Source: Pseudomonadota bacterium
Lineage (GTDB): Bacteria > Oederibacteriota > Muellerivitia > Muellerivitales > Muellerivitaceae
Assembly (NCBI GenBank): GCA_021324075.1
Contig: JAJPJW010000025.1
Coordinates: 43,306 to 107,305 of the forward strand
Length of the DNA stretch: 64,000 nt
Direction: 5' to 3'
Shown piece after piece: positions 3,706 through 48,113 of the stretch. Within the stretch, counting starts at the first letter, position 1, and each line of letters begins with the position of its first letter. The notes below the pieces were generated by a model. That model saw only the letters and a list, made by a program, of their open reading frames with translations, was not told the origin of the DNA and did no database searches. A program made the translations under genes and the position numbers.

Positions 3706-6700
3706 ATGACGACCTTCCGAAAAATCGTTTTAATCTCCTCGGCGGTTATCCTCGTTTTGGCGGGCCGGCTTTCGGCCCAGACGGTTGTCACCACCAACGC
3801 GGGGGATGAAAGCAACGGCTCCCTCGGCTGGGCCGTCACCACCCTCAACAACGCGGGGGCGGGGGCCATCAGCATCGGTAACGTAGGCACCATCACGCTT
3901 ACCCAGCCTTTACCCGCCTTTACCCAGGATGTCACCCTCCAGGGCGGCAGTTCCAACGTCATCGGCTCTCCTTTCTCTTTCCAGGGGTTTACCCTCGATT
4001 CCGCCGCCGCACTCACCCTCACGAACAATACGGGGTTGGATACGGCCATGACGGCCACTTCCGGGAACCTTTCCAATAATTCTTCCTTTTCCTTCACCGG
4101 CGGCGCGGGCGCGACGGGAACGGGTTTAGGTGGCGGCAACGCCGGCTCGGCCTCGGTGACGACGACCTCCTTGGCCCTTTCCGGCGCCCAGGGGACCATC
4201 GAAGGCGGTTTAGGCGGGGCGGATTCCTATCAAGACGGAAATGGCGGCTCAGCGACTCTCTCCACCGGTTCCCTCACCCTGGATACGGCGGCCCAGCTCC
4301 AAGTGGTTGGTGGCAGTGTGGGCCTGGGCAACGGGGCCCTGGGCAACGGCGGCAACGCGGTCCTTACGGCCAACTCGGTTTCCTTGACCGGATCGGGCAC
4401 CCAGTTGGCCCTCTTCGGCGGCGACGGCGGAAGCCCCCAGGCGGTCAACACCGGGCCGGGGCCGGTCAATGGCGGCGACGGCGGTTCGGTTTCCTTCGCG
4501 GCTTCCTCGGTTACGATGGATTCCCAGGCCCTCTTCACCGTCACCGGCGGCCAGGCTGGAAGCGTTTCAGCCACCAGCTCGGGCCGGGGTGGAACGGGCG
4601 GGTCCGTGACGGTTCTTTTAGGAAGCTTGGATTTCACCAACAGCGGTGCCTTGAGCATCGTGGCCGGGGATGGCGGCACAGGTGCCAAGGGCTGGATCGG
4701 CGGTAATGCCTTCGTGACCGTGGGCGCGGCCAACCAGGGAACGGGTTCGACCCTCAGCATCGTCAGCGGCATCGGGGGCGGCAATTCCAGCGGCGGTTCC
4801 GTCAACTTCTTCGCCGCTTCCCAAACCCTGGCCTCGGGTGCGACCTTCATCGCCCAGGGCAACGCCGGGGGCTCGGGCGCGTCGGCGGGCGGCAATGGCG
4901 GCTCGGTACAGGTGGGCGTCCAGGCCTTGACCCTCACTTCCGGTTCGCTTTGGGAAGTTTCGGGCGGGGCGGGAGGAACTGGAACCTCCACCAACGGCGC
5001 CGGCGGCAGCGCCTTCGTCAATATCCACGACCTGGAAGGGTCGGGTACGGTCAGCATGGGCGGGCCCGGCCAGGATACCCTACAATTGACCAACGGAAAT
5101 TTTTCGGGCGTCATCGCCGGCAGTGAAGGCCTGAACCTCACCGGTTTCGGCACAGTGACCCTCACGGGCAACAACACCTATAGTGGCGGCACCACCCTTT
5201 CCATCGGAACGGCCGTGGTCAACAACGAGAACAACCTGGGAACGGGCAACCTGACCCTGGACACGGGTACCCTGGTCCTGGGCAACTTCAACACCACTAA
5301 GTCCATCAGCCTGAGCTCCAACGGCGGAACCATCGTCACAACCCCCACCGACATCGCCCTTTTCAGCGGTGTCATCTCCGGCCCGGGCGGCCTGCTGTTG
5401 ACGGGGGGTGGTTCGGTCATCCTCAACGCGGTGGACAGCTACACGGGCCAGACCACGCTTGCCGATGGAAGCCTGGTCCTGGACGGCGGGTCCCAAGTGG
5501 GGGGAGCGGTGGTGGTTGCGGGCGCCGCCTCCACGCTGACCGGAACGGGCAGTATCTCGGGCGCGGTCACCAACAACGGTACGGTGCAAGCGGGGTCGGG
5601 TTCCGCTACCGGCACCCTGGCGATGGGCGCTTACACCCAAGGCGCGGGCGGAACCCTGGACGCCCTTGTCTCCCCGACCGGCGCCAATAGCCTCGCCGTG
5701 GCGGGTGCGGCCAGCCTGGCCGGGGCGGTCACGGTGGACCAGACCGCGGGCACCTATACGGGTTTGCGCTACCGTTACGTCCTGCTCTCGGCCGGATCGC
5801 TGGCTGGGACCTTCACTACGACGGATTTTACTGTCCTGCCCAGTTGGAACCCTCTCGTAACCTACGGCTCCAACGCGGTGACCTTTATCCTTTTCCACAA
5901 CGTGGATTTCACCCCCTGGGCCGTGGGGGCCAACCAGACGGCGGTGGCACAGGCCTTGAACGCGGCGGTTCCAACCGGCAGCGACAGCCTGGTCAACAAG
6001 CTAAACGAGATCAACCAACTACCCTCGGGCCAGGGGCTGGCCCTGGGCCAGTTAACGGGCGACCTCTACACCGCCCTTCCGGGAATCCTCTTGGACAACG
6101 CGCAGTTCGAGGACAGCCTGCTCTTCGACCGGCTCGACGGCGGCACAGGTACGGGCATGGGTTCGGCCCAGGCGGGCCTTGTTCGCAACATCCTTTCGGC
6201 GGAAGTTTCAGGCCCAGGCGGCCAGGCCGCCGGCTTGGCGAATCCCGGTGCGGGCGGCCTGTGGATCGAGAACACCGACAGCGCAGGGTCGGTCAACAGC
6301 GACGGCAACGTGGAAGGTTTCAACCAATCCAACTACGGGTTCCTAGCGGGCTATGATACCGAGCTTTCCAAGGGGCTCACCGGCGGGATCATGGGCGGCT
6401 GGGTGCACACGGACGCCACGGGAACCTATACGGGCGCCAAGGCGGGTGTGGACAGCGCCCAATTCGGCGTCTATGGCAGCAAAAAGTTCGGCGCGGTGGA
6501 ACTGGGCCTGGTGGCGGGCTATGGCTTGGACCACCTGACGGCCAACCGCACGGTTTCCATCGGCAGCGACGTGACGGCCCTGGCGGGCACCGCGGACGGC
6601 AGCCAGATCCAGGCGGCGTTGCAGGGGTCTTACGACCTGGGGGTTCCAGGCTTTACCCTGAAGCCCCTGGCGGGAATGGCCTATGCCCATTTGAGCGAGA

Positions 6701-7121: not shown

Positions 7122-7176
7122 GTCCCCCTCACCCCAACCCTCTCCCTGGTAGGGAGAGGGTTGGGGTGAGGGGGAC
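7122..7176 (+). repeat. Family 2 GC-rich perfect palindrome (22-bp stem, 5-nt loop) with AT-rich flanks, immediately 3' of the autotransporter gene; possible terminator
   Basis: CCCCTCACCCCAACCCTCTCCC-TGGTA-GGGAGAGGGTTGGGGTGAGGGG. A related half-copy lies inside addA at 16208-16244. Confidence 0.5.
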
Positions 7177-9396: not shown

Positions 9397-12300
9397 TTGG
9401 CGATTTCCCTCTATTTAGGCCCCTACCAGCCCTTCCTCGAAAACGAACTTGCCGCGACCGTCCAAACCCTCCGTCAATCCGATCCCTTGTCACCCTTGGT
9501 TGTCTTGGTCCCCAACCGGGCCCTGGTCCGGCACCTGCGGGAGGAACTGGCCCGGAGGAACGGGTCGACTGTCAATCTGCGTGTCCTAACCCTGCACCAA
9601 TTCCTACTCGAATTCACCGAGGAAAAATGGATCCGGGAGGAAACCCGGCTCCTGCCCGAATCCATCGTTCCCTGGGTGCTGCGCGAGAACGCCAAGAAGG
9701 TCCGGCCCAAGGGCGGCGGGCCCTTTGCGGCGGTGGACAAGACCCCCGGTTTCCCCAAGACCCTGCGGGCCACCCTTTCGGAACTGCGCCAAGGGGGGGT
9801 CACCGCCAAGGAATTGGCCGAATCCGCCAAGGCTATCGGCAAAGCCCGGGACCGCAAGCGCCTGGGGGAGAAATTGGCCGAATTCGCCGCCCTTTTGGAC
9901 GAGAACGGGCGGTGGAAAGCCAAAAACCGTTGGAAGGATCGGGAAGACCTCTATGAGGACGCGCTGGACTTACCTGTTCCCGCCGCCGCCGTCTGGACTT
10001 ACGGGTTTTATGACGCCTCTGTTCTGCAACAAAAAGTTCTACTCCACTTAACCCAAAAACCTAGGATTGCCACGTCGCCAAACGCCCCGATTGGGGCGGC
10101 TCCTCGCAATGACAGTCATTGGTTCATCCCTTATGAAGAGGACCACCCGGCTTTCGAGTACGCGAAACCGTTCGTGGATTGGGCGAAGACGAAGGGAAAG
10201 GTGGCAAAGGTTGAAAAGTGGAAAGGTGAAAAGGGAACGGCCTTAGGAAGGCTGCAATCTGACCTATTTAAATCGGACGACTTAACTGAGATCACCACGC
10301 CCCAAAGCGCGCCGATTGGCGCTGGGGCTCGTGATGACGGCAATTTTGAAAATTCGACGGTCAAGGTCCTCCTTTGTCCCGGCGAACCCCGGGAAATGCG
10401 GGAAGTGGTGCGGGCCGTCACCGAGGAAGCCGAAAGGCGAAAAACCCACTTCTCCCAATGCGGGCTGTTGCTTCGACAACTGGAAACTTACCGGCGCATG
10501 ATCACCCCCGCCTTCGAGGACCAGCAAGTCCCTTTGGCGAAAAAACCCTCCATCTACCTGATGGAAACCCCCGAAGCCAAGGCCTTCCTCCTCTTGTTGG
10601 ACTGTTTCCAGTTGGAATTCGCCCGGGAAAGGCTGATGGACTTCCTGGCCTCTCCCAACCTGGACTCCGAGGGGTTCGGGGTGAGGGAAGAGGATTGGAA
10701 CCCCCATCTTTGGGACCAGGCTTCCAAGGAAGCGGGCGTGGTGGAAGGGGAGGGGGCCTGGATCGACCGGCTGAAAGAATACGAAAGGCCGAGGTCCGGC
10801 AAAGCCTCGTTTGACGAGGAGGGATTCTCAACGGGGGACTCCGCCTCCCTCTCGGCTTTCCGGGTGAAGGTGCTCCAAACGCTTTTCGACGCAAGGCACC
10901 GGTTTGACAAGGAAAAGAACTGGGTCGGGAAGGCGGGGATCCTTTTCGACCTGGCGGAAAAAATTTTCGTGAAGTCCGACGCCAAGGAAGAGTTGAAGAC
11001 CCTGCGGCGGGGCATGGAGATCCTTTCCCGGGAATCCTTCACGGTGGAGAAGGACGAACTGGGGGCCCTCCTCTCGGGGCTTATGGAAGAGGTGAAAATT
11101 CCCTGGAAGGCGCCCGAGGCGGGCGGGGTCGAAGTGTCGGACCTCATGCAGGCCCGGGGCGTGCCCTTCGACGTACTCCTCCTGCCCGGCCTGGTGGAAC
11201 AGGGTTTTCCCCGGGTACCCCGGCCCGACCCCCTGCTCCTGGACGAGGAGCGGCGCATCCTCAACGAGCGCTTTTCCGGCAAGGCCAAGGTGCCCGAAAA
11301 AGCCGAGGGGCGGCTGGAGGAGAAACTGCTCTTCCTGCTGGCGGTACGCGGCGCCCGGCAATGCGTCATCCTCACCGCCTCCCACCTGCACCCCGGCACG
11401 GGGGCGCCCCGGGTCCCTTCCAGCTACCTGCATGAGACCCTGCGGGCGGTCACGGGCGAGCGCCAAACGAAGTGGGGGGATTCCCCCTATGTCCGCAAGG
11501 TCGCGGTGTCCGATTGGGTGCGTGACGCGGGCGAGACCCGTGTGGACGACCTGGAAGAGGTCTTGAGCCGCTTCCAGGAAGCCCGGGAGGGAAATCCCCT
11601 GCCCGCCCAGGCCTATGCCGCCCAGAAGCCTTTTTTCGACGAGGCCCGGAAGCTCCTCAAGGAACGCCAGGGAAGCCGCAAGTTCACGCCCTATGACGGG
11701 GTCTTCCAGGACCCCGCCGCCGTGGAAAAACTCCGCCACGACTATTCCCTCAAGGCCAAGACCCTCTCGGCCTCGCGGCTGGAAACCTACGCCGCCTGCC
11801 CGCTGCGCTATTTCTACCGCTATGTGCTGGGGCTGCAGGTGCACCCCGAACCGGAAAGGGTTTTCCAATTGGACCCGGCGGAAAAGGGCAATCTCATGCA
11901 CTCGATCCTGGAAGAGACACTGGACCGGGGAAAGCAGGACGGCTGGCTGAAGGACCGGAACGGGGAAAAAGCAGCCCAGGCCCTGGCCGAAGAGACCCAA
12001 AAGACCTTCCAGCAGTTTGAAAAAGACGGGGTGACAGGCTCCCCAGCGCTCTGGCAATGGAGCCAGTTCAGCCTGGGCCTCGACTTACGAAAAGCCCTCA
12101 AGAAGGTCCTGGCGGATGAGGAATGGACCCCGGTGGACTTCGAAAAAGCCTTCGGCCGCGAAGGCCAGCCCGAGGTGACCTTTGAAACCCCGGCGGGGAC
12201 TTTCCGATTGGAAGGGTTCATGGACCGGGTGGACCTGTCGGCGGAGGGGAAACACTTGAGGGTGGTGGATTACAAATCCGGGAGCAAGGACGGGTTCAAG

Positions 12301-12657
12301 AACGACAGCGTGAAGGAAGGCACCAAGATCCAGATGCCGCTCTACCTCTGGGCCTGCCGCACCCTTTACCCCGGGGTCGTGCCGCAAGAGGCGGTCTATG
12401 AGTTCCTTACCGCCAAGGGCGATTATGGTTCCATCGGTTTCGACGCGAGTGATTGGAAAAAGGTCGAGGAACCCCTGAAGGCCCTCCTCACCACGGCGTC
12501 CGAAGCGGTGGAGCAGGGGTTGTTCCCGGCGGTCGCCAAGGCGTGCGACCGGTGCGATTACCGGACCCTTTGCGGGCCAGGGGTGGAGAAGCGGGGGGAA
12601 AGAAAGTTAAGAGATCAAAAATTAGAAAAATATTTGAAGTTGACCGAATTGCCATAA
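9397..12657 (+). CDS. addB: AddB-type PD-(D/E)XK nuclease subunit of helicase-nuclease complex (no Walker A), with C-terminal Fe-S cysteine cluster
   Basis: Nuclease motifs SRLETYAACPLRYFYRYVLG and VVDYKSG. Cys cluster CDRCDYRTLCG plus the upstream Cys completes a 4-Cys AddB-like Fe-S signature. ~1086 aa. Confidence 0.65.
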   Translation: MAISLYLGPYQPFLENELAATVQTLRQSDPLSPLVVLVPNRALVRHLREELARRNGSTVNLRVLTLHQFLLEFTEEKWIREETRLLPESIVPWVLRENAKKVRPKGGGPFAAVDKTPGFPKTLRATLSELRQGGVTAKELAESAKAIGKARDRKRLGEKLAEFAALLDENGRWKAKNRWKDREDLYEDALDLPVPAAAVWTYGFYDASVLQQKVLLHLTQKPRIATSPNAPIGAAPRNDSHWFIPYEEDHPAFEYAKPFVDWAKTKGKVAKVEKWKGEKGTALGRLQSDLFKSDDLTEITTPQSAPIGAGARDDGNFENSTVKVLLCPGEPREMREVVRAVTEEAERRKTHFSQCGLLLRQLETYRRMITPAFEDQQVPLAKKPSIYLMETPEAKAFLLLLDCFQLEFARERLMDFLASPNLDSEGFGVREEDWNPHLWDQASKEAGVVEGEGAWIDRLKEYERPRSGKASFDEEGFSTGDSASLSAFRVKVLQTLFDARHRFDKEKNWVGKAGILFDLAEKIFVKSDAKEELKTLRRGMEILSRESFTVEKDELGALLSGLMEEVKIPWKAPEAGGVEVSDLMQARGVPFDVLLLPGLVEQGFPRVPRPDPLLLDEERRILNERFSGKAKVPEKAEGRLEEKLLFLLAVRGARQCVILTASHLHPGTGAPRVPSSYLHETLRAVTGERQTKWGDSPYVRKVAVSDWVRDAGETRVDDLEEVLSRFQEAREGNPLPAQAYAAQKPFFDEARKLLKERQGSRKFTPYDGVFQDPAAVEKLRHDYSLKAKTLSASRLETYAACPLRYFYRYVLGLQVHPEPERVFQLDPAEKGNLMHSILEETLDRGKQDGWLKDRNGEKAAQALAEETQKTFQQFEKDGVTGSPALWQWSQFSLGLDLRKALKKVLADEEWTPVDFEKAFGREGQPEVTFETPAGTFRLEGFMDRVDLSAEGKHLRVVDYKSGSKDGFKNDSVKEGTKIQMPLYLWACRTLYPGVVPQEAVYEFLTAKGDYGSIGFDASDWKKVEEPLKALLTTASEAVEQGLFPAVAKACDRCDYRTLCGPGVEKRGERKLRDQKLEKYLKLTELP

Positions 12658-12684: not shown

Positions 12685-14310
12685 ATGAACGATGACATCA
12701 AAATTTTAATTGAATTACTTAATGCTGAAGGGCGACCTGATATTTCAGAAATTTTTCAAAACGCAGTAAGTGAGCTTAGGGTTTCAGATCAATATGGGAG
12801 TTACTTATTTTCTTTAATTTCTAGTTTTTTAATTTATTTGCCACCGAAAGCTTACGTAAAAGCAAAAAAATTAAAAGAAGAAGACATCAAGTTAATTTTG
12901 GAGTTAGTTTGTGGAATATATCCTTTACAAGACAATGAACCGGAAGTTGTTAAGATCGAATTCATAGTTCAAAAAAATTACTCAACCCAAGAAGTAACAA
13001 ATCAAAAGACATCTAATTCTCGAAAAGAACTTTATTCATTGAAAGGTTTAATTGGAGATGGTGGTTTTGCCGAGGTTTTTGAGGCTGTGGGAAAAGACGG
13101 TAAGATTTATGCCATGAAGTTTTTAAGGGAAGGTCATGATGAAGAAGATATAAAAAGATTCAAACGAGAAGTAAGAATTCAATCTACTTTAAAACATAAC
13201 AACATTGTTTCAGTAATTGACATGGATCTTGAGGCGGATTCTCCTTGGTTTCTAATGCCGAAAGCTTATTTCAATTTAGAAGATTATCTGAAGAAGAATT
13301 ATGGAGAAAGGGAAATACCATTATTTTTTCAAATAGCTGAAGGTGTTTCTTTCGCTCATTCGCAAGGAATTATTCATAGGGATTTGAAACCTTTAAATGT
13401 ATTGATGTTTCCAAGTCAAGATGGAGAAAGCCTTTTTCCTGCAATATCTGATTTTGGTTTGGGCAAAATAATTGAAGGTGATTCTCCCGCGGTAACTTAT
13501 TCAAACACCCCTATTGGAACGATTGGATTTGTTGCACCTGAACAAATTGTAGATGCTAAAAATGCAAGAGAATCAGCAGACATTTATTCTTTAGGAAAAA
13601 TTTTATATCAGATTCTTTCCGGAAAAAATCCTTACCCATCTTTAGACTTTGAATCTTTTCCCAAGAAGTTTTTTTATTCAATTAATAAAGCTACCAACAA
13701 TGATCCAAAACAGAGATACCAAAGTGTGAAAGAATTTTTGGGGGATATTGAATTATTAACTAAAAAAGATATGGAATTTGAAGAGTCTTCGGAAAGTATT
13801 TTAAAAAGAGCCGACGAATTAAAAGAAACTAGTCGTGTTTCGAGCGAGGAGGTAGAAAAATTCGTCAAAACACTCTTTGATATAACTGAAAATAAAATCG
13901 CAATGATTAGGACTCTACCCAAAATACCAGAGCTACTTTTGAAAAGAATGGTAGAAGAACAACCAACGATGTTTAGAGAAATTCTAAAATCCTATGAGTC
14001 ATATATTGATGAAGTTAGTTTTGAATATTGTGATGTTGTTGCCGATCTATATAAAAAAATTTTCTTTTGGACAAATGACAAAGACGTTCAGTTTATAGTC
14101 TTGAAACGCTTGCCAATTCTTGGACTCTCGCATAATCGTTGGCATGTTGGAGAAGTATTTGCTGAATTAGTTCAAAGTTTGAAAGAAGAATCTTTAATTT
14201 TGTTTACAAGAGATGTTTTAAATGAAAACAAACGCGGAGCCGAATGGTGTGAAGCATATCTTTCAAGAGTAAATATTCCGAAACTTGTTAGAAATATATA
14301 TACAAAATGA
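12685..14310 (+). CDS. Hanks-type Ser/Thr protein kinase with unknown N-terminal (~115 aa) and helical C-terminal (~190 aa) domains; strongly AT-rich foreign gene
   Basis: All catalytic motifs are present: GDGGFAEV (Gly loop), YAMKF (Lys), HRDLKPLN, DFG, VAPE, DIYSLG. The gene is roughly 30-35% GC in a >60% GC neighbourhood. Confidence 0.85.
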   Translation: MNDDIKILIELLNAEGRPDISEIFQNAVSELRVSDQYGSYLFSLISSFLIYLPPKAYVKAKKLKEEDIKLILELVCGIYPLQDNEPEVVKIEFIVQKNYSTQEVTNQKTSNSRKELYSLKGLIGDGGFAEVFEAVGKDGKIYAMKFLREGHDEEDIKRFKREVRIQSTLKHNNIVSVIDMDLEADSPWFLMPKAYFNLEDYLKKNYGEREIPLFFQIAEGVSFAHSQGIIHRDLKPLNVLMFPSQDGESLFPAISDFGLGKIIEGDSPAVTYSNTPIGTIGFVAPEQIVDAKNARESADIYSLGKILYQILSGKNPYPSLDFESFPKKFFYSINKATNNDPKQRYQSVKEFLGDIELLTKKDMEFEESSESILKRADELKETSRVSSEEVEKFVKTLFDITENKIAMIRTLPKIPELLLKRMVEEQPTMFREILKSYESYIDEVSFEYCDVVADLYKKIFFWTNDKDVQFIVLKRLPILGLSHNRWHVGEVFAELVQSLKEESLILFTRDVLNENKRGAEWCEAYLSRVNIPKLVRNIYTK

Positions 14311-17300
14311 GTTATTGGAAAAAATTGTGATTTCAGACCAATCCGTTCGGGACCAGGTCATCCATGACCACGAAAGCCTCTTCGCGGTGGACGCGGGGGC
14401 GGGAACTGGCAAAACGACGCTCCTGGTGTCCCGGCTCATCTCGCTGCTCCTGGAAAAGCAGGCGCCCTTAAGCCGCATCGCGGCCATCACGTTCACTGAA
14501 AAGGCTGCCGCCGAACTGGCTGAGCGGTTGCGCTCCAAACTCGAAGAGGCTTTGGGGAAACATCCCGAATCCAAAACCCCTATTCCTCAAGCATTGGAGG
14601 ATATGGAGCGAGCTCCCATTTCCACCATCCACTCCTTCTGCGCGGGGCTCTTGCGGGAATACCCGGTGGAGGCGGGGGTGGATCCCCAATTCACCCTTTT
14701 GGACGAGGTTCAATCCGGGGCCTTCGAGGACCAGGCCTGGGACCATTGGCTCAAGAAGAACCTGGCGAAACCGGTCGAACCCATGTTCCAGTTCTTCCGC
14801 TTGGGCGGCACCTTCGAGCATGTGGATGAACTCAAACAGTTTCTAAAGCGCAACCGCACCCTTTTGACTTTGGCCTCCCCCAAACCCCTGCCTTCCGTGA
14901 AATCTTTCCATGCCCAGTTCAGCACCTTCGTGGCCTTAACGAAGCGGGAAGCCGCCCAATGCGCCAAGCATGAAGACACCCTTTATGAAGCCCTCGAATC
15001 CTTTTGGGCCCAATGTGCGACGATTGAGGGATCGGATGCGGGTGACCTGGACTTCGCCTTGGCAAACCTGAAGGTCCCCAAGGTCGGCAACAAGGGCGCC
15101 CAAGGCAATTGGGGGAAAGAACGGTTGGCGGCACTACGCGAGGGGTTCGTGAAGCTGGCGGAGGACCACCAAACGGCCTTCGCTCCCTTCAAAGAGGCGG
15201 TCATCCTGAACCTGGTCCACTGGGTTGGGAGATACTTGGAGGAATGGGAAAGCCAGAAGGCCCAAGGTGGCTTCCTTGACTTCGACGACCTGCTCCTGAA
15301 GACCCGCGACCTCCTGCGGAATTACCCCGAGGCCCGGGAAGAAATAAAGGGCCGGCTCGACTATCTTTTCGTCGATGAGTTCCAGGATACGGACCCGCTC
15401 CAAGTTGAGATCGTCTTCTTCCTCTGTGAAAAAAAGGGACGGCCCGAAAAGGATTGGAAAAAGGTGAAGCTGGAACAAGGGAAGCTTTTTCTCGTCGGTG
15501 ACCCCAAGCAAAGCATCTACCGTTTCCGGCGGGCGGATGTGGCCATCTACGAAGCCACCAAGGAGCGAATTCTGGCCAACGGGGGCAAGGTCGAGGTGCT
15601 CACCGAAAACTTCCGGACCGTAGGCGGGTTGGTGGAATGGGTCAACGGCTTGTTTCCCACCCAATTCGAGGGGACAGGCATCCACTATCACGCCCTCAAT
15701 GCCAGCCGGGCGAAGGGAAAGACCGAAGGAAGCCTGCCCATCCTCTGGGGCTTGAAGATACCGGCGGCGGGGGAAGAAAAGCCCAGCAAGGCCCTCCTCC
15801 GGCAGCTCGAAGCCGAAACCGTGGCGGCCTTCCTCAAAGACCAAGTGCTCGGCGGCGGGTTCACGGTGTCGGACCCCAAACCCCCTTTCGAGAGGCGTCC
15901 GGTGCGCAAGGGCGATATCGCCATCCTTTTCCGGGACCTCTCCAACGACAACGAGGAATTCTGGGAGGAAGCCCTGCGCAAGCGCGACCTGTCCTACCAG
16001 ATCGTCGGCGGCAAGCGTTTCTACAACCGGCCTGAGATCGTGGCCCTTTCCACCCTTTTGACCTGCCTCTCCTCGCCCGCCGACGAGGCGGCCAACGTCG
16101 CGGTGCTTCGCGGGCCTTTGTTTGGCTTCAGCGACGAGCAATTGTTCCTCCACCGCGCCGGGGGTGGAAATTTTCAATTCCTAAATCCTTCAATCTCAAA
16201 AACAGGCACCCCTCACCCTGGCCCTCTCCCGCAAGGGGAGAGGGGAAATATTAAATTGGCTTTTGTTTACTTGAGGAAATGGCACCAAGCCACCCGGACC
16301 CTGGGGGTGTCGGACACCCTGGCCAAGCTCTATGAAAGCACCAACCTGCTCGCGGTCACGGCGGGCCAGCCCCATGGGGAACAACGCGTGGCCAATTTGA
16401 TGAAGGTCTTGGACCAGGCCCGGGACCTGGAGACTTCCCAACATTTCACCTACCGGGCCTTTACCCAGTGGCTCACCACCCAACAAGAGGAAGGGACGAT
16501 GGAAGGCGAAGCGCCGGGTCCCGATTCCTCCGAGGACCGTATCACGCTCATGACCATCCACAAGGCCAAGGGTTTGGAGTTTCCCATCGTCTTCGTGTCG
16601 GGAATCGCCGCCGACCCCAAGGATTCGGGGAGCCTGGTGGATCGCAAGCATTCGGCGGGCGCCTTCAAGGTGGGCAAGGCAGAGCTGGGTTTGCGCACGA
16701 CGAATTACGAGGCCGTACAGAAAGAGGAGGAAACCCAGCGCAAGGCCGAGGACAGCCGCCTGCTTTACGTGGCCGCCACCCGGGCGAGGGATTGCCTACT
16801 CCTGCCGCATTTTCAATTTACCCCAGGGGGCAAGACCCAGAATGAGAGCCTCTTTGCGGGGCCGCTTCTAAAGGCATTGGAAGAAAAAAACGCTCCCACC
16901 CATTGGGCCGAATCAAAAGAAGGTGAAGAACCTTTGAGCGATCCGCCCGCCTGGGTGGTGCCCCTGGACGAAAAACCAGGCAAAGCTTTGGAGGATGAAA
17001 AAACGAAACTGAAAACCGGGCAGGAAGCCCGCAAGAAGAAAATCGAGGAGATGAGGGGGGAACGCCAATTCAAGTCCGTCAGTTCGGTCCTCCATGTGGA
17101 CGAGGACAAGAAAGATCGGGAAGAACGGGTTTTCGAGGAGCCCGAAGCCGCCTCGCCCTGGGGCGGGAAAGACCTGGGGTCCCTCACCCACCTGCTTTTG
17201 GAAAAGGGATGGGACTGGGACGGGGCGACCTTTGAAAAAGGCGCCGCCTTTTACATTGAGAAAATGGGAATGACGCCCGAACAGGCGGCCCAAGCCTTGG

Positions 17301-17620
17301 ACTGGGTGAAAAAAGCCCTCCAGAGCGACCTCCTCCAAAGGGCCAAAAGATCCGGGAAGGCTTTCCGTGAACTGCCGGTTACCGGCCAAAACCCCGATGG
17401 TTCCTTCTTGAACGCCGTCATCGACCTGGCCTTTTTGGAAGGGGACGAATGGGTGGTGGTGGATTACAAGACCGACCGGGACACGGAAAAACTCAAGGAC
17501 AAGTACCGCCAACAACTGGTCTACTACGGCGACCTCCTGACCCGGTTCACCGGGAAGAAAGTCAAAGAAGCCCACCTTTATTTCCTCCGGCACGACCGCG
17601 TGGACCCCGTTTCTCTTTAA
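14285..17620 (+). CDS. addA: AddA-type ATP-dependent helicase/nuclease (UvrD-like helicase plus C-terminal RecB-family nuclease)
   Basis: Walker A AGAGTGKTT; UvrD motifs; C-terminal nuclease VVVDYKTDR. The track start at 14285 is TTG and overlaps the kinase stop. The conserved N-terminus (SDQSVRDQVI...) suggests the real start is TTG 14315 or GTG 14329, where GC content returns to host-like. Confidence 0.75.
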   Translation: MLEIYIQNELLEKIVISDQSVRDQVIHDHESLFAVDAGAGTGKTTLLVSRLISLLLEKQAPLSRIAAITFTEKAAAELAERLRSKLEEALGKHPESKTPIPQALEDMERAPISTIHSFCAGLLREYPVEAGVDPQFTLLDEVQSGAFEDQAWDHWLKKNLAKPVEPMFQFFRLGGTFEHVDELKQFLKRNRTLLTLASPKPLPSVKSFHAQFSTFVALTKREAAQCAKHEDTLYEALESFWAQCATIEGSDAGDLDFALANLKVPKVGNKGAQGNWGKERLAALREGFVKLAEDHQTAFAPFKEAVILNLVHWVGRYLEEWESQKAQGGFLDFDDLLLKTRDLLRNYPEAREEIKGRLDYLFVDEFQDTDPLQVEIVFFLCEKKGRPEKDWKKVKLEQGKLFLVGDPKQSIYRFRRADVAIYEATKERILANGGKVEVLTENFRTVGGLVEWVNGLFPTQFEGTGIHYHALNASRAKGKTEGSLPILWGLKIPAAGEEKPSKALLRQLEAETVAAFLKDQVLGGGFTVSDPKPPFERRPVRKGDIAILFRDLSNDNEEFWEEALRKRDLSYQIVGGKRFYNRPEIVALSTLLTCLSSPADEAANVAVLRGPLFGFSDEQLFLHRAGGGNFQFLNPSISKTGTPHPGPLPQGERGNIKLAFVYLRKWHQATRTLGVSDTLAKLYESTNLLAVTAGQPHGEQRVANLMKVLDQARDLETSQHFTYRAFTQWLTTQQEEGTMEGEAPGPDSSEDRITLMTIHKAKGLEFPIVFVSGIAADPKDSGSLVDRKHSAGAFKVGKAELGLRTTNYEAVQKEEETQRKAEDSRLLYVAATRARDCLLLPHFQFTPGGKTQNESLFAGPLLKALEEKNAPTHWAESKEGEEPLSDPPAWVVPLDEKPGKALEDEKTKLKTGQEARKKKIEEMRGERQFKSVSSVLHVDEDKKDREERVFEEPEAASPWGGKDLGSLTHLLLEKGWDWDGATFEKGAAFYIEKMGMTPEQAAQALDWVKKALQSDLLQRAKRSGKAFRELPVTGQNPDGSFLNAVIDLAFLEGDEWVVVDYKTDRDTEKLKDKYRQQLVYYGDLLTRFTGKKVKEAHLYFLRHDRVDPVSL
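16165..16272 (+). repeat. Family 2-related element (AT-rich arms plus CCCCTCACCCTGGCCCTCTCCC-GCAAG-GGGAGAGGGG) lying in frame inside the addA ORF
   Basis: ~108-bp low-GC patch inside addA translating to GGNFQFLNPSISKTGTPHPGPLPQGERGNIKLAFVYL. Its left half matches 7123-7144 at 19/22. Confidence 0.4.
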
Positions 17621-17650: not shown

Positions 17651-17745
17651 CCCCCTTTGAAAAAGGGGGGAGGGGGGTATTAGCCTTTGTCTGGGCGAAA
17701 TGATAAGTCTAACTCCCTCTTAGTCCCCCTCTTTCAGAGGGGGAG
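17651..17745. repeat. Family 1 repeat, solo copy: G-tract hairpin CCCCCTTTGAAAAAGGGGGGAGGGGGGTATTAGC plus second hairpin CCCCCTCTTTCAGAGGGGGAG
   Basis: Near-identical copies at 24126-24212 and 25596-25630; an inverted copy at 25982-26018. Confidence 0.6.
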
Positions 17746-24125: not shown

Positions 24126-24212
24126 CCCCACTTTGAAAAAGGGGGGACAGGGGGGTATTAGCTTTTGCGGTGAGGCTAACTCCCCCCCAATCCCCCTCTT
24201 TCAGAGGGGGAG
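24126..24212. repeat. Family 1 repeat, solo copy
   Basis: CTTTGAAAAAGGGGGGACAGGGGGGTATTAGC ... CTAACTCCCCCCCAATCCCCCTCTTTCAGAGGGGGAGG. Lies between acyltransferase-1 and hpnE. Confidence 0.6.
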
Positions 24213-25570: not shown

Positions 25571-25595
25571 TTCAAAATCCTTAAGGAGAAAAAAT

Positions 25596-26018
25596 CCCCC
25601 TTTGAAAAAGGGGGGTAGGGGGGTATTAGCTTTTCACAACCGCCCTTAGTATTTCCTCTAGAACCGCCTCTTTATTTTTCAAAACTTGGTGGTTATCCAA
25701 TCGAAGTACCCTTAAACCCTGGTTCTTGAAAAACGAATCCCGAAGAACATCTTTTTCTTTTACTTCGCCATGAAAATGTTGTCCGCCATCTATTTCAATG
25801 ACCAGAGCGGCCTCACGGCAATAGAAATCCACAATGTAGTTGCCGATGATCCGCTGACGATAAAAACAAGCTCCAGCAATTTGTTTGCGGCGAAGATGGG
25901 ACCAGAGAAGACGTTCGGCATCCGTCATCCCGCGACGGAGTTTTCGGGCAGTTTGTGTTTGATTCCTACGATAAGGCAACAACTAATACCCCCCTTCCCC
26001 CCTTTTTCAAAGGGGGGA
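25596..26018. mobile_element. Small element bounded by ~35-bp inverted copies of the family 1 G-tract repeat and carrying a single DUF559 endonuclease-like gene
   Basis: Left end TCCCCCTTTGAAAAAGGGGGGTAGGGGGGTATTAGC (25596-25630). The right end reverse-complements to CTCCCCCCTTTGAAAAAGGGGGGAAGGGGGTATTAGTTGT (25982-26018). Inserted between hpnD and hpnE. Confidence 0.55.
25626..25982 (-). CDS. DUF559 domain protein (Vsr/restriction-endonuclease-like fold)
   Basis: 118 aa. Conserved DUF559 core RKLRRGMTDAERLLWSHLR...IVDFYC...LVIEIDGGQH. The ORF runs exactly from one terminal repeat to the other. Confidence 0.7.
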   Translation of the reverse strand: MLPYRRNQTQTARKLRRGMTDAERLLWSHLRRKQIAGACFYRQRIIGNYIVDFYCREAALVIEIDGGQHFHGEVKEKDVLRDSFFKNQGLRVLRLDNHQVLKNKEAVLEEILRAVVKS

Positions 26019-43447: not shown

Positions 43448-43524
43448 GGACATTTAGCTCAGCTGGTTAGAGCGTCGCGTTCACATCGCGAAGGTCACTG
43501 GTTCAAATCCAGTAATGTCCACCA
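43448..43524 (+). tRNA. tRNA-Val (anticodon CAC), CCA encoded
   Basis: Cloverleaf: acceptor GGACATT/AATGTCC, D-arm AGCTCAGCTGGTTAGAGC, anticodon stem TCGCG/CGCGA with loop TTCACAT, T-arm GGTTCAAATCC, discriminator A plus CCA. Confidence 0.85.
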
Positions 43525-47297: not shown

Positions 47298-47999
47298 ATG
47301 AACTGGCGGTTGATCCCTTCTTCCAGCGTCCCCACCCCCGGCCAAATGGCTTATGACGCCGAGCTGTTCAAGCGGTTCAAGGCCGGGGAACCGCCCATCC
47401 TGCGGTTTTTCCATTTTGAGCGGCCCACCCTGACCCTGGGAAGGCTGGAGGCCCGCCGGCTGGACCTGGAGGCCCTGTCCTACCCCTGTGAGATCCGCCC
47501 CACGGGCGGGCGGGCCGTTTTGCACGGTGCGGGGGACCTTTGTTATTCCATCGTGGCGGGAACCAAGGACCCCCTGGTGGGGGGGGAATTGCTGGAAAGC
47601 TACCGGAAGATCAGCGGGCTGTTGTCCTATGCCCTAAGGGGATTGGACCGGGAAGTCCGGCTCTCGGAGGAAAGGCACGCGGGTTTGGAGGCGGGCCACT
47701 GTTTTTCGGCGCCGTCCTTCGCCGAACTGGTTTTAAACGGGAAAAAGGTGGCCGGGGGTGCCCAGGCCCGGGAAGGCGGGGTTTTCCTCCAACAAGGGGT
47801 CATCCTCTTGTCCGTGGACGAAGGATGGAAAACCCTTTTTCCGGAAGCCGCGGGCGGCGGGATGGCGGGCCTGAACGACGGGAAGCCGCTGCCCCCCTTA
47901 AGCCGGATGGACGTGGAGAGGGCCATTGTGGCGGCTTTCGAGGAAACGGGAGTGGAGTTCGAGAAACATCGTGCGATCACGGAAACAAGAATCATTTAG
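47298..47999 (+). CDS. Lipoate/biotin protein ligase family (BPL/LPL catalytic domain; octanoyl- or lipoyl-transferase)
   Basis: RPTGGRAVLHG and GKKVAGGAQ motifs typical of LplA/LipM-type catalytic domains. ATG chosen inside track ORF 46932..47999. Confidence 0.55.
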   Translation: MNWRLIPSSSVPTPGQMAYDAELFKRFKAGEPPILRFFHFERPTLTLGRLEARRLDLEALSYPCEIRPTGGRAVLHGAGDLCYSIVAGTKDPLVGGELLESYRKISGLLSYALRGLDREVRLSEERHAGLEAGHCFSAPSFAELVLNGKKVAGGAQAREGGVFLQQGVILLSVDEGWKTLFPEAAGGGMAGLNDGKPLPPLSRMDVERAIVAAFEETGVEFEKHRAITETRII

Positions 48000-48000
48000 C

Positions 48001-48081
48001 CACAGATGCACACGGATGAACACAGATGGCTTTAGATTCAAATCCAAAATAATCTGTGTTTATCTGTGTTAATCTGTGGCA
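48001..48081. repeat. Miniature inverted-repeat element, family 3 (CCACAGATG...ACACAGATGG / ATCTGTG x3 ...CTGTGG)
   Basis: The right arm reverse-complements to CCACAGATTAACACAGATAAACACAGAT, matching the left arm CCACAGATGCACACGGATGAACACAGAT. AT-rich centre. Sits between the lipoate ligase gene and lpd. Confidence 0.5.
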
Positions 48082-48113
48082 AAAGATATTTTGGCCTTTG
48101 TTTGGAGCATTGA

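Follow-up and report, generated by a model that had tools for sequence, protein, structure and literature searches.

BoxC elements, also named PIT elements or TM_ECO, have been known for about thirty years, with neither a function nor a spreading mechanism assigned to them. They were reportedly also treated by Bachellier et al. in the 1990s and by Hoyne et al. in 2000. The present analysis concerns a copy of this motif that lies in frame within an addA-like helicase-nuclease gene on contig JAJPJW010000025.1, in a 64-kb stretch (64,000 nt, hereafter the window) from an uncultured lineage. It is considered likely that this copy belongs to a pan-bacterial repeat which entered addA once, spread among related lineages by recombination and is kept as a DNA motif, the encoded peptide being a passenger that the protein tolerates.

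The motif is described by the pattern 5'-CCCTCNCCC N3-6 GGGNGAGGG N3 GGGNGAGGG-3' and, as single-stranded DNA, forms a very stable intrastrand purine-motif triplex (melting temperature of 70–82 °C; circular dichroism and nuclear magnetic resonance) (Holder et al. 2015, NAR 43:10126, PMC4666352). E. coli K-12 contains 23 copies that are 'always located intergenically'; in E. coli no link of these to transposons, phages or plasmids was found, and neither promoter nor terminator activity was detected for PIT elements (PMC4666352). Local sequence variability is raised at the E. coli loci, with small deletions in palindromic pairs, and the survey of 2015 catalogued the motif in 262 proteobacterial genomes (PMC4666352). 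The addA copy resembles the E. coli elements in its pattern, in stem and loop lengths, in having single and palindromic double forms, in belonging to a multi-copy family and, probably, in the conversion of paired into single forms by small deletions. Unlike the intergenic copies of K-12, it sits within a conserved coding sequence, in frame and translated.

Three other systems invite comparison. Rickettsia palindromic elements (RPEs; Ogata et al. 2000) are short palindromes found in frame in many unrelated, often essential genes (reviewed in PMC10969869), and the addA copy is similar to them as an in-frame palindromic insert that encodes a fold-compatible surface peptide and is patchy among orthologs. 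RPEs are ~100–150 bp in length and AT-rich, occur in Rickettsia only and code for one conserved peptide each; in contrast, the addA element is a 35-nt G/C-rich triplex motif that occurs across phyla, in several frames and both orientations, and is conserved as a DNA structure. Judged by their descriptions, RPEs would be the closest analogue in function only, membership being with BoxC/TM_ECO. Elements of the REP/BIME/REPIN type share short, GC-rich imperfect palindromes that are highly repeated and often form inverted pairs, but REPs carry a 5' GTAG-type tetranucleotide, are extragenic, co-occur with RAYT and lack the third mirror-repeat segment of BoxC. No GTAG was present 5' of the motif at either window copy and no RAYT was detected among the open reading frames (ORFs) of the 64-kb window that were scanned. 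[quoted passage not shown] Correia/NEMIS, ERIC and cyanobacterial elements) are likewise small, non-autonomous and occasionally intragenic, and those of cyanobacteria include in-frame fusions (PMC10969869). In MITEs, terminal inverted repeats and target-site duplications go back to an insertion-sequence parent, whereas the AT-rich arms around the addA motif are locus-specific and are not inverted repeats.

A triplex motif within addA

The features of the addA patch and of the second BoxC locus in the window are as follows (window coordinates; P and L numbers are handles for proteins and loci, respectively).

14327..17620 (+): AddA-like helicase-nuclease gene, the host gene (Pfam domains, fold match, database protein)
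16169..16288 (+): diverged haplotype block common to insert-bearing alleles, comprising AT-rich arms and insert (pairwise identity, arm GC)
16184..16258 (+): segment without counterpart in empty-site orthologs (protein and codon alignments with P0002/L002 and P0004/L007)
16210..16244 (-): BoxC / TM_ECO intrastrand-triplex motif, 35 nt, exact regular-expression match to the published pattern
16222..16244: hairpin of 9 bp within the motif (arms 16222-16230 and 16236-16244; loop GCAAG), no other pairing in the patch being stable
16210..16218 (+): CCCTCACCC, complement of the third-strand segment GGGTGAGGG; its hairpin partner is absent in the addA copy
7122..7176: intergenic palindromic BoxC, 3' of the autotransporter gene, with two overlapping TM_ECO motifs at 7126-7160 (-) and 7138-7172 (+)

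The minus strand of 16210-16244 reads CCCTCTCCC-CTTGC-GGGAGAGGG-CCA-GGGTGAGGG with loops of 5 and 3 nt, the G-rich motif lying on the addA template strand. The unit joins a C/G-rich 9-bp hairpin to a G-rich third segment in mirror symmetry with the purine arm. A custom triplex search, which combined a 9-bp hairpin with a third segment under G.G-C, A.A-T and T.A-T triplet rules, returned 9 Watson-Crick pairs and 9 Hoogsteen-compatible triplets with 0 mismatches for this copy, and gave 0 matches on 20 shuffles of the window. On this sequence evidence, the core of the patch is a BoxC/PIT/TM_ECO intrastrand-triplex motif, and the pattern is compatible with triplex formation by the addA copy. ViennaRNA predicted the hairpin alone, triplexes being outside its model. 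The 108-nt patch was no more stably folded than its shuffles (z = -1.2 as DNA and -1.1 as RNA), and in the folding test the AT-rich arms exhibited no mutual pairing and were not inverted repeats. A preliminary description of this DNA had proposed a GC palindrome at this point; this holds for the inner 9 bp, which alone are self-complementary, and fails for the left CCCCTCACCC, which has no complementary partner and serves as the third-strand segment of the motif. All three frames of the addA copy are open by our own reading of the sequence. No Rfam family was found at the patch (gathering threshold across the window; E <= 1 on 16050-16400), the single match of the window being a tRNA at 43448, and a terminator and promoter scan at the motif detected no terminator-like tail after the hairpin and no promoter signal.

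The copy between genes, at 7122-7176, folds as a perfect hairpin of 26 bp (z = -9.2) and has the published 'palindromic' configuration. It matched unannotated sites of E. coli with 86–90% identity over ~50 nt in 5008 of 5426 complete genomes, at a median of 15 places per genome, and the addA core matched like sites on plasmids of Enterobacter, Klebsiella and Azospirillum. Derivation of the patch from a dispersed repeat related to this intergenic palindrome, as suggested in the preliminary description, was borne out; the 19/22 match reported there is real, although it aligns at 7125-7146 and not at 7123-7144. Within the window there are exactly two occurrences of CCCTCTCCC-N5-GGGAGAGGG, at 7138 and 16222 (0.03 expected), and the two BoxC loci together contain three motifs. 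Sites of CCCTCACCC at 4271, 10679, 17181 and 21147 were considered as further copies and rejected, being isolated 9-mers in ordinary coding sequence.

The wider distribution of the motif was examined with a scan for the half-motif CCTCACCC-N3-CCCTCTCCC, using one genome per species. At least 120 loci from nearly every bacterial phylum were recovered and, among the matches listed, a loop and GGGAGAGGG followed in 100 of 152 copies, which marks one family of striking conservation. Strict TM_ECO matches numbered 80 in 60 of the 120 scan loci (i.e. L008-L127), again among the matches listed, with hosts from Planctomycetota, Verrucomicrobiota, Chloroflexota, Acidobacteriota, Bacteroidota/Rhodothermota, Omnitrophica, Caldithrix, Myxococcota and others, a range that goes well past the 262 proteobacterial genomes surveyed in 2015. 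A variant motif, CCTTCTCCC / GGGAGAAGG / GGATGAGGG, was present in six related loci (including L001 three times, L005 twice, L006, L007 and L128) and was triplex-compatible in all nine occurrences, its third segment being altered in step with the hairpin. This three-way covariation suggests that the triple-segment architecture itself has been propagated or kept.

The arms of the patch (16169-16207 and 16245-16288; 39–44 nt) have a GC content of 0.31 and 0.32 as compared to 0.586 for the coding sequence and contain the lowest-GC 39-nt windows of the gene, only 0.46% of all its windows being at <=0.31; in 60-nt windows, GC drops from ~0.63 to 0.43–0.47 at the patch. The combination of low-GC arms, GC-rich core and intact frame had been correctly noted before. 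The arms had, however, also been taken for parts of the element, and this did not hold since they match no other copy. A BLAST search of the patch against 72,556 plasmids matched the core region only (<=38% of the query, positions 44–114) and never the arms. In the metagenome collection, the arm-core junction was found in one contig only, by its length and match position that of the L006/L129 addA, in a collection evidently without L005, which makes this a weak negative. Comparison of these sequences indicates that the arms are an addA-specific haplotype outside the dispersed repeat. Their low GC may derive from co-inserted flanking intergenic DNA or from faster divergence beside the motif. 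An excess of GC-to-AT changes, which could betray deamination near a structured motif, was considered for the native flanks and rejected, as it was seen against L002 only and was equal in the empty-vs-empty comparison.

The insert among AddA orthologs

An alignment was made of 30 AddA orthologs, of which 22 close ones, the window's gene among them, were compared in a tree. An empty short loop, xxAxGKMGE (consensus FLxxAxGKMGEAF), was present in 17 of the 22 close orthologs and in all seven more distant ones (49–52% identity), and a further 10 orthologs covering the site were also empty. At this site FLEHAPGKIGEAF of the orthologs corresponds to FLNPSISKTGTPHPGPLPQGERGNIKLAF of the window, where 25 codons (NPSISKTGTPHPGPLPQGERGNIKL) stand in place of nine (e.g. 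EHAPGKIGE), which lengthens the gene by 48 nt, or 16 codons, net. The patch is therefore an in-frame indel relative to most orthologs, as the earlier proposal of an insertion led one to expect, but the 36 codons then given to it must be reduced to a net gain of 16 as NFQFL and AFxYL are native AddA positions outside the insert. Translation proceeds without a stop through the patch as NFQFLNPSISKTGTPHPGPLPQGERGNIKLAFVYL in an open frame of 1111 codons (14285-17620, +), and a tryptic peptide spanning the inserted segment would be TGTPHPGPLPQGER.

An insert was found in five of the 22 close orthologs, which share 74–85% amino-acid identity, and occurs in short and long forms. The short form of P0010/L004 adds 14 codons (16 in the window), the long form of P0005/L006 adds 32, and a longer form in P0006/L001 and P0013/L005 adds 42; P0121, which shares a cluster with P0006, likewise has the long form. 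Short forms consist of a single motif whilst long forms (L001, L005 and L006) contain an inverted pair of one TM_ECO and one variant motif. In a neighbour-joining tree of 1021 ungapped columns, from which the patch was left out, the insert-bearing alleles were monophyletic in 0 of 500 bootstraps. P0013, with an insert, was sister to the empty P0014 (100% support); P0010, with an insert, grouped with the empty P0008 and P0018 (92%); and the window and P0006 fell in a clade (98%) with the empty P0002, P0003, P0004 and P0007. The short form is common to the window and L004, which belong to different clades. Precise loss does not explain the empty alleles because these keep the ancestral loop seen in outgroups.

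The sequences flanking the insert were compared between alleles. All five insert alleles share diverged AT-rich flanks, NFQFLNPSIS... and ...KIKLAFxYLREWHQ, in the same frame and the same orientation. In the 15-codon windows abutting the insert, nucleotide identity was 0.42–0.64 for insert-vs-empty pairs, with gene means of 0.79–0.82, and 0.81–0.82 for empty-vs-empty pairs. Insert-vs-insert pairs exhibited identities of 0.76–0.94 next to the insert, above their gene means of 0.74. Divergence of the flanks next to the insert was 0.27–0.40 as compared to 0.17–0.24 gene-wide, and synonymous positions in the arms varied normally. A single origin, followed by recombinational transfer of a cassette or by re-assortment of an old polymorphism, is the most economical account that these alignments suggest.

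The level at which the insert is constrained was assessed at fourfold-degenerate sites, restricted to alignment columns in which all five insert alleles have the same amino acid. Six of seven such sites were invariant in the motif core as compared to 59 of 296 (19.9%) gene-wide (binomial estimate, p ~ 4e-4), and the one variable core site was the first base of loop 1. Residues encoded by the loops varied (G/D/N and E/A). Frozen synonymous sites in the stems combined with varying loop residues indicate that conservation acts on the DNA stems and not on the peptide, which argues against domestication at the protein level.

Sequence alignment to solved structures places the insert at approximately residues 665–700 of B. 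subtilis AddA and 440–470 of PcrA, a stretch that we take to be helicase domain 2B from the domain boundaries of PcrA, UvrD and Rep. It had previously been assigned to a helicase-nuclease linker, which this placement contradicts. In an AlphaFold2 model, residues 626–655 formed a coil between helices 617–625 and 656–670, with a predicted local distance difference test score (pLDDT) of <50 at 636–654. The insert probably lengthens an exposed, disordered loop of domain 2B, making it Pro/Gly-rich and 16 residues longer in the predicted structure.

Origin, spread and maintenance

A sequence of events can be proposed for the single-origin account. Insertion would have occurred once in the clade, through the process that spreads BoxC, with template switching or error-prone repair at a structure-stalled fork as a plausible route. 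The insert would have survived because it kept the frame, contained no stop codon and lay in a permissive surface loop. It would then have moved among related lineages as a cassette of ~120–300 nt by homologous recombination, or an old polymorphism would have been re-assorted by recombination. Deletion between the two motifs of an inverted pair, an event described for palindromic TM_ECO sites of E. coli (PMC4666352), would probably have turned the paired form into the short form seen in the window; or else the long form would have come about by gain of a second motif. Maintenance as a DNA motif could reflect a constraint on structure or correction from other BoxC copies of the genome, and for the protein the insert would be a tolerated passenger and no functional module.

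Several points weigh against this account. The insertion step is conjecture. By our own reading, both junctions have a weak likeness to GGnAAA(A/T) against the empty site GGA AAA ATG; this could be a decayed target-site duplication, which would imply transposition instead. The genome was sampled by 64 kb, and copy number and a linked transposase were judged within that length. An in vivo triplex footprint was not detected even in E. coli (PMC4666352). The AlphaFold2 model is modest (mean pLDDT of 67.9, predicted template-modelling score of 0.45, alignment 30 sequences deep). The frozen stems could result from recent conversion rather than selection. Finally, P0054 carries an unrelated repeat (SPFAKASGDRE) in the same loop, marking the site as an insertion hotspot.

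This last observation bears on the alternative that the same BoxC entered one permissive or targeted site separately in each lineage, with no recombinational spread. The scatter of insert alleles over well-supported clades, the hotspot in P0054 and the presence of different repeats at other AddA and AddB sites in different lineages all fit repeated independent insertion, which retains a small probability. It is nevertheless unlikely given that the five alleles share diverged AT-rich flanks outside the dispersed repeat, with insert-vs-insert identity around the site above the gene mean and the same frame and orientation throughout. An action in cis, whereby a hairpin or triplex would modulate addA expression (e.g. 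as a pause or RNase site) or promote instability and phase-like switching of alleles, is rather improbable. The DNA-level constraint, the coexistence of long and short forms and the raised divergence of the flanks agree with such an action, as do the raised variability and the small deletions in palindromic pairs at TM_ECO loci of E. coli (PMC4666352). Against it stand the lack of a terminator-like tail, promoter signal or Rfam family at the motif, the finding that PIT elements have neither promoter or terminator activity nor an in vivo triplex footprint (PMC4666352), and the occurrence of the same motif in many unrelated genes, which argues against an addA-specific function. Every allele seen is in frame, so on/off switching is not evident.

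A domesticated protein module would be a Pro/Gly-rich loop with a role in AddA, for instance in contacting DNA, AddB or a partner. Domain 2B of superfamily 1 helicases is regulatory, and the insert is in frame in five of 22 close orthologs at 74–85% amino-acid identity. Domestication, which the preliminary description had favoured, is very unlikely as the insert is absent from most orthologs, including sisters of the carriers, varies in length (+14, +16, +32 or +42 codons), is predicted to be disordered (pLDDT < 50) and is conserved on DNA stems, synonymous sites included, whilst loop residues vary. That description had also classed the patch as a MITE/REP-type element. Under this reading a non-autonomous transposon with AT-rich terminal arms would have been moved by a transposase or RAYT. 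The motif is indeed a multi-copy palindromic repeat with AT-rich surroundings at both window copies and a weak direct-repeat likeness at the addA junctions, but this classification is highly improbable. The arms are neither inverted repeats nor paired and are absent from all other copies, there is no clean target-site duplication and no GTAG-tagged REP architecture, and an incomplete scan of the window ORFs found no transposase domain among those covered. The core is a BoxC motif, for which no tie to transposons, phages or plasmids was found in E. coli (PMC4666352). A single entry of BoxC into addA followed by recombinational spread and maintenance as DNA is retained as the likely account. The locus illustrates that the motif can live in an essential-type coding sequence, conserved at the DNA level and present as a polymorphic cassette among related lineages. 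Because the coding context separates DNA from protein constraints, it provides a handle on how the motif is maintained.

Other in-frame copies and the surroundings of addA

In-frame intragenic copies were identified in 11 of 147 scanned from other bacteria, the criterion being Pfam domains on both sides within the same open frame. Spanning stop-to-stop ORFs were rejected as a proxy for genic location, being unreliable in GC-rich genomes, and the Pfam criterion was used instead. The hosts of these copies were as follows.

Mfd: two copies, between the UvrB-interaction domain and D3 (L015)
IcmF-like mutase: linker (L024, Acidobacteriota)
Class I aminoacyl-tRNA synthetase: catalytic domain (L040, Devosia)
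NAD-dependent ligase LigA: adenylation domain (L108, Planctomycetota)
ABC transporter: linker (L019, Verrucomicrobia)
HsdR, type I restriction subunit (L074)
Molybdopterin-binding/cytochrome c fusion (L125, Variovorax isolate)
Lipoyl-domain dihydrolipoamide dehydrogenase: linker (L097)
MetRS: two copies (L009)

Further copies occur in the AddA proteins of the clade, which contain at least six polymorphic in-frame insert sites (window residues ~90, ~251, ~388, ~636, ~750 and ~871). Repeat-like peptides at these sites in P0002-P0054 included PVRLASLAQ, LRQGFGGQVQV, DRTGVFNDTGTVKSSASAGGLGA, VRSxxRPPAEAQDL and the BoxC type. The BoxC family follows residue ~251 (KPSPLxGEGRVRG...HPHPxLLPSREKG) in P0003, P0004, P0006, P0012, P0013 and P0014, in short and long forms, and lies near residue 388 in P0030. 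A paired BoxC is present in addB of L001, at the second addB insert site. A 42-residue peptide query against a set of 5.8 billion proteins gave no candidates through its word index, an outcome that carries no information on in-frame copies.

The evidence indicates that it is a general trait of the BoxC family, and apparently one not described before, for an intergenic triplex repeat to become a translated and polymorphic insert; no description of in-frame BoxC/TM copies was found in the literature searched, a search beyond the reach of which lay most subscription-journal papers. A broader proposal is put forward tentatively, with doubt slightly the stronger side: BoxC/TM_ECO would be a pan-bacterial class of DNA, selfish or structural in nature, with repeated in-frame landings in conserved proteins (including AddA, AddB, Mfd, LigA, HsdR, a class I aminoacyl-tRNA synthetase, IcmF-like mutases and ABC transporters); it would be kept as DNA motifs, as seen in three-segment covariation and frozen synonymous sites, and exchanged between lineages by recombination. 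If true, a phenomenon like that of RPEs would extend to a whole domain of life, and in-frame copies would be natural experiments that part DNA-level from protein-level selection and could reveal what maintains the motifs. The locus also shows such repeats to be behind a sizeable share of the variation in length among large conserved proteins of uncultured bacteria. Annotators and structure predictors should therefore regard Pro/Gly-rich peptides such as PHPxPLPxGERG and SPLxGEGxGEG as probable repeat-derived disordered loops and not as functional motifs.

The MetRS of L009 (2-2161, +; Variovorax metagenome-assembled genome, JANOCL010000198.1) contains a DUF559 endonuclease-like domain (residues 467–575) between two inverted BoxC copies (residues ~435 and ~585). 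The BoxC-DUF559-BoxC unit is in frame throughout, with the synthetase body on one side and the C-terminal tRNA-binding domain on the other, and is a possible mobile cassette making use of BoxC ends.

The host gene was examined together with its partner, which lies upstream.

9397..12657 (+): AddB-like partner gene (Pfam PDDEXK_1, weak ADDB_N; NCBIfam addB_Gpos under cutoff)

The likely addA start is a GTG at 14327, where the database protein P0001 (1097 residues, 100% identical to the window AddA) begins; the mechanical ORF starts at a TTG at 14285. Pfam domains UvrD-helicase, UvrD_C and PDDEXK_1 were found in the ORF, and the locus has the AddA architecture of an N-terminal UvrD-like superfamily 1 helicase, a C-terminal RecB-type PD-(D/E)XK nuclease and a nearby AddB-like partner. 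The top fold match of the product was 4ceh_A, the AddA chain of B. subtilis AddAB (E = 9e-36), with 3u44_A also at the top. NCBIfam scores were all below the equivalog cutoffs (addA_Gpos, 321 bits with a cutoff of 707–708; addA_alphas, 253 with 861; recB, 280 with 696) and the gene is therefore termed 'AddA-like'. AddA orthologs of the clade are 1070–1235 residues in length. The gene order autotransporter - HPr - LytB - addB - variable cargo - addA is kept in relatives. The addB-addA spacer (12685-14310) is a variable cargo slot, with a Ser/Thr protein kinase in the window; orthologous loci (L001, L002, L004 and L128) hold PhdYeFM/PIN or RHH/PemK toxin-antitoxin pairs, a UvrD fragment or a Phage_Mu_F-like gene.

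At 10063-10113 and 10291-10340 (+), addB itself contains in-frame repeats of a second, unrelated palindromic family, one copy at each site, translated as PRIATSPNAPIGAAPRND and ITTPQSAPIGAGARDD. They are the only two matches of this family in the window (0 expected) and are absent from AddB of L001 and L002; the same two sites hold other repeats in L004, L005 and L007. Segment ITTPQSAPIGAGARDD was considered as a decayed BoxC relic and rejected, being a copy of this second family.

Further triplex-compatible intergenic hairpins were found at 17712-17744 (-), 24179-24211 (-), 25595-25627 (+) and 25985-26017 (-), with none in shuffles. Each has a mirror-symmetric G-rich third segment beside the hairpin, and these motifs have different sequences (TCCCCCTCT-gaa-AGAGGGGGA... 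and CCCCCCTTT-gaa-AAAGGGGGG...). One of these hairpins lies just 3' of addA, with a like motif in an L002/L003 ortholog. The inverted repeat listed as the longest of the window, at 47995-48084, is a 44-nt imperfect repeat (80% complementary, 2-nt spacer) rich in CACAGAT/ATCTGTG.

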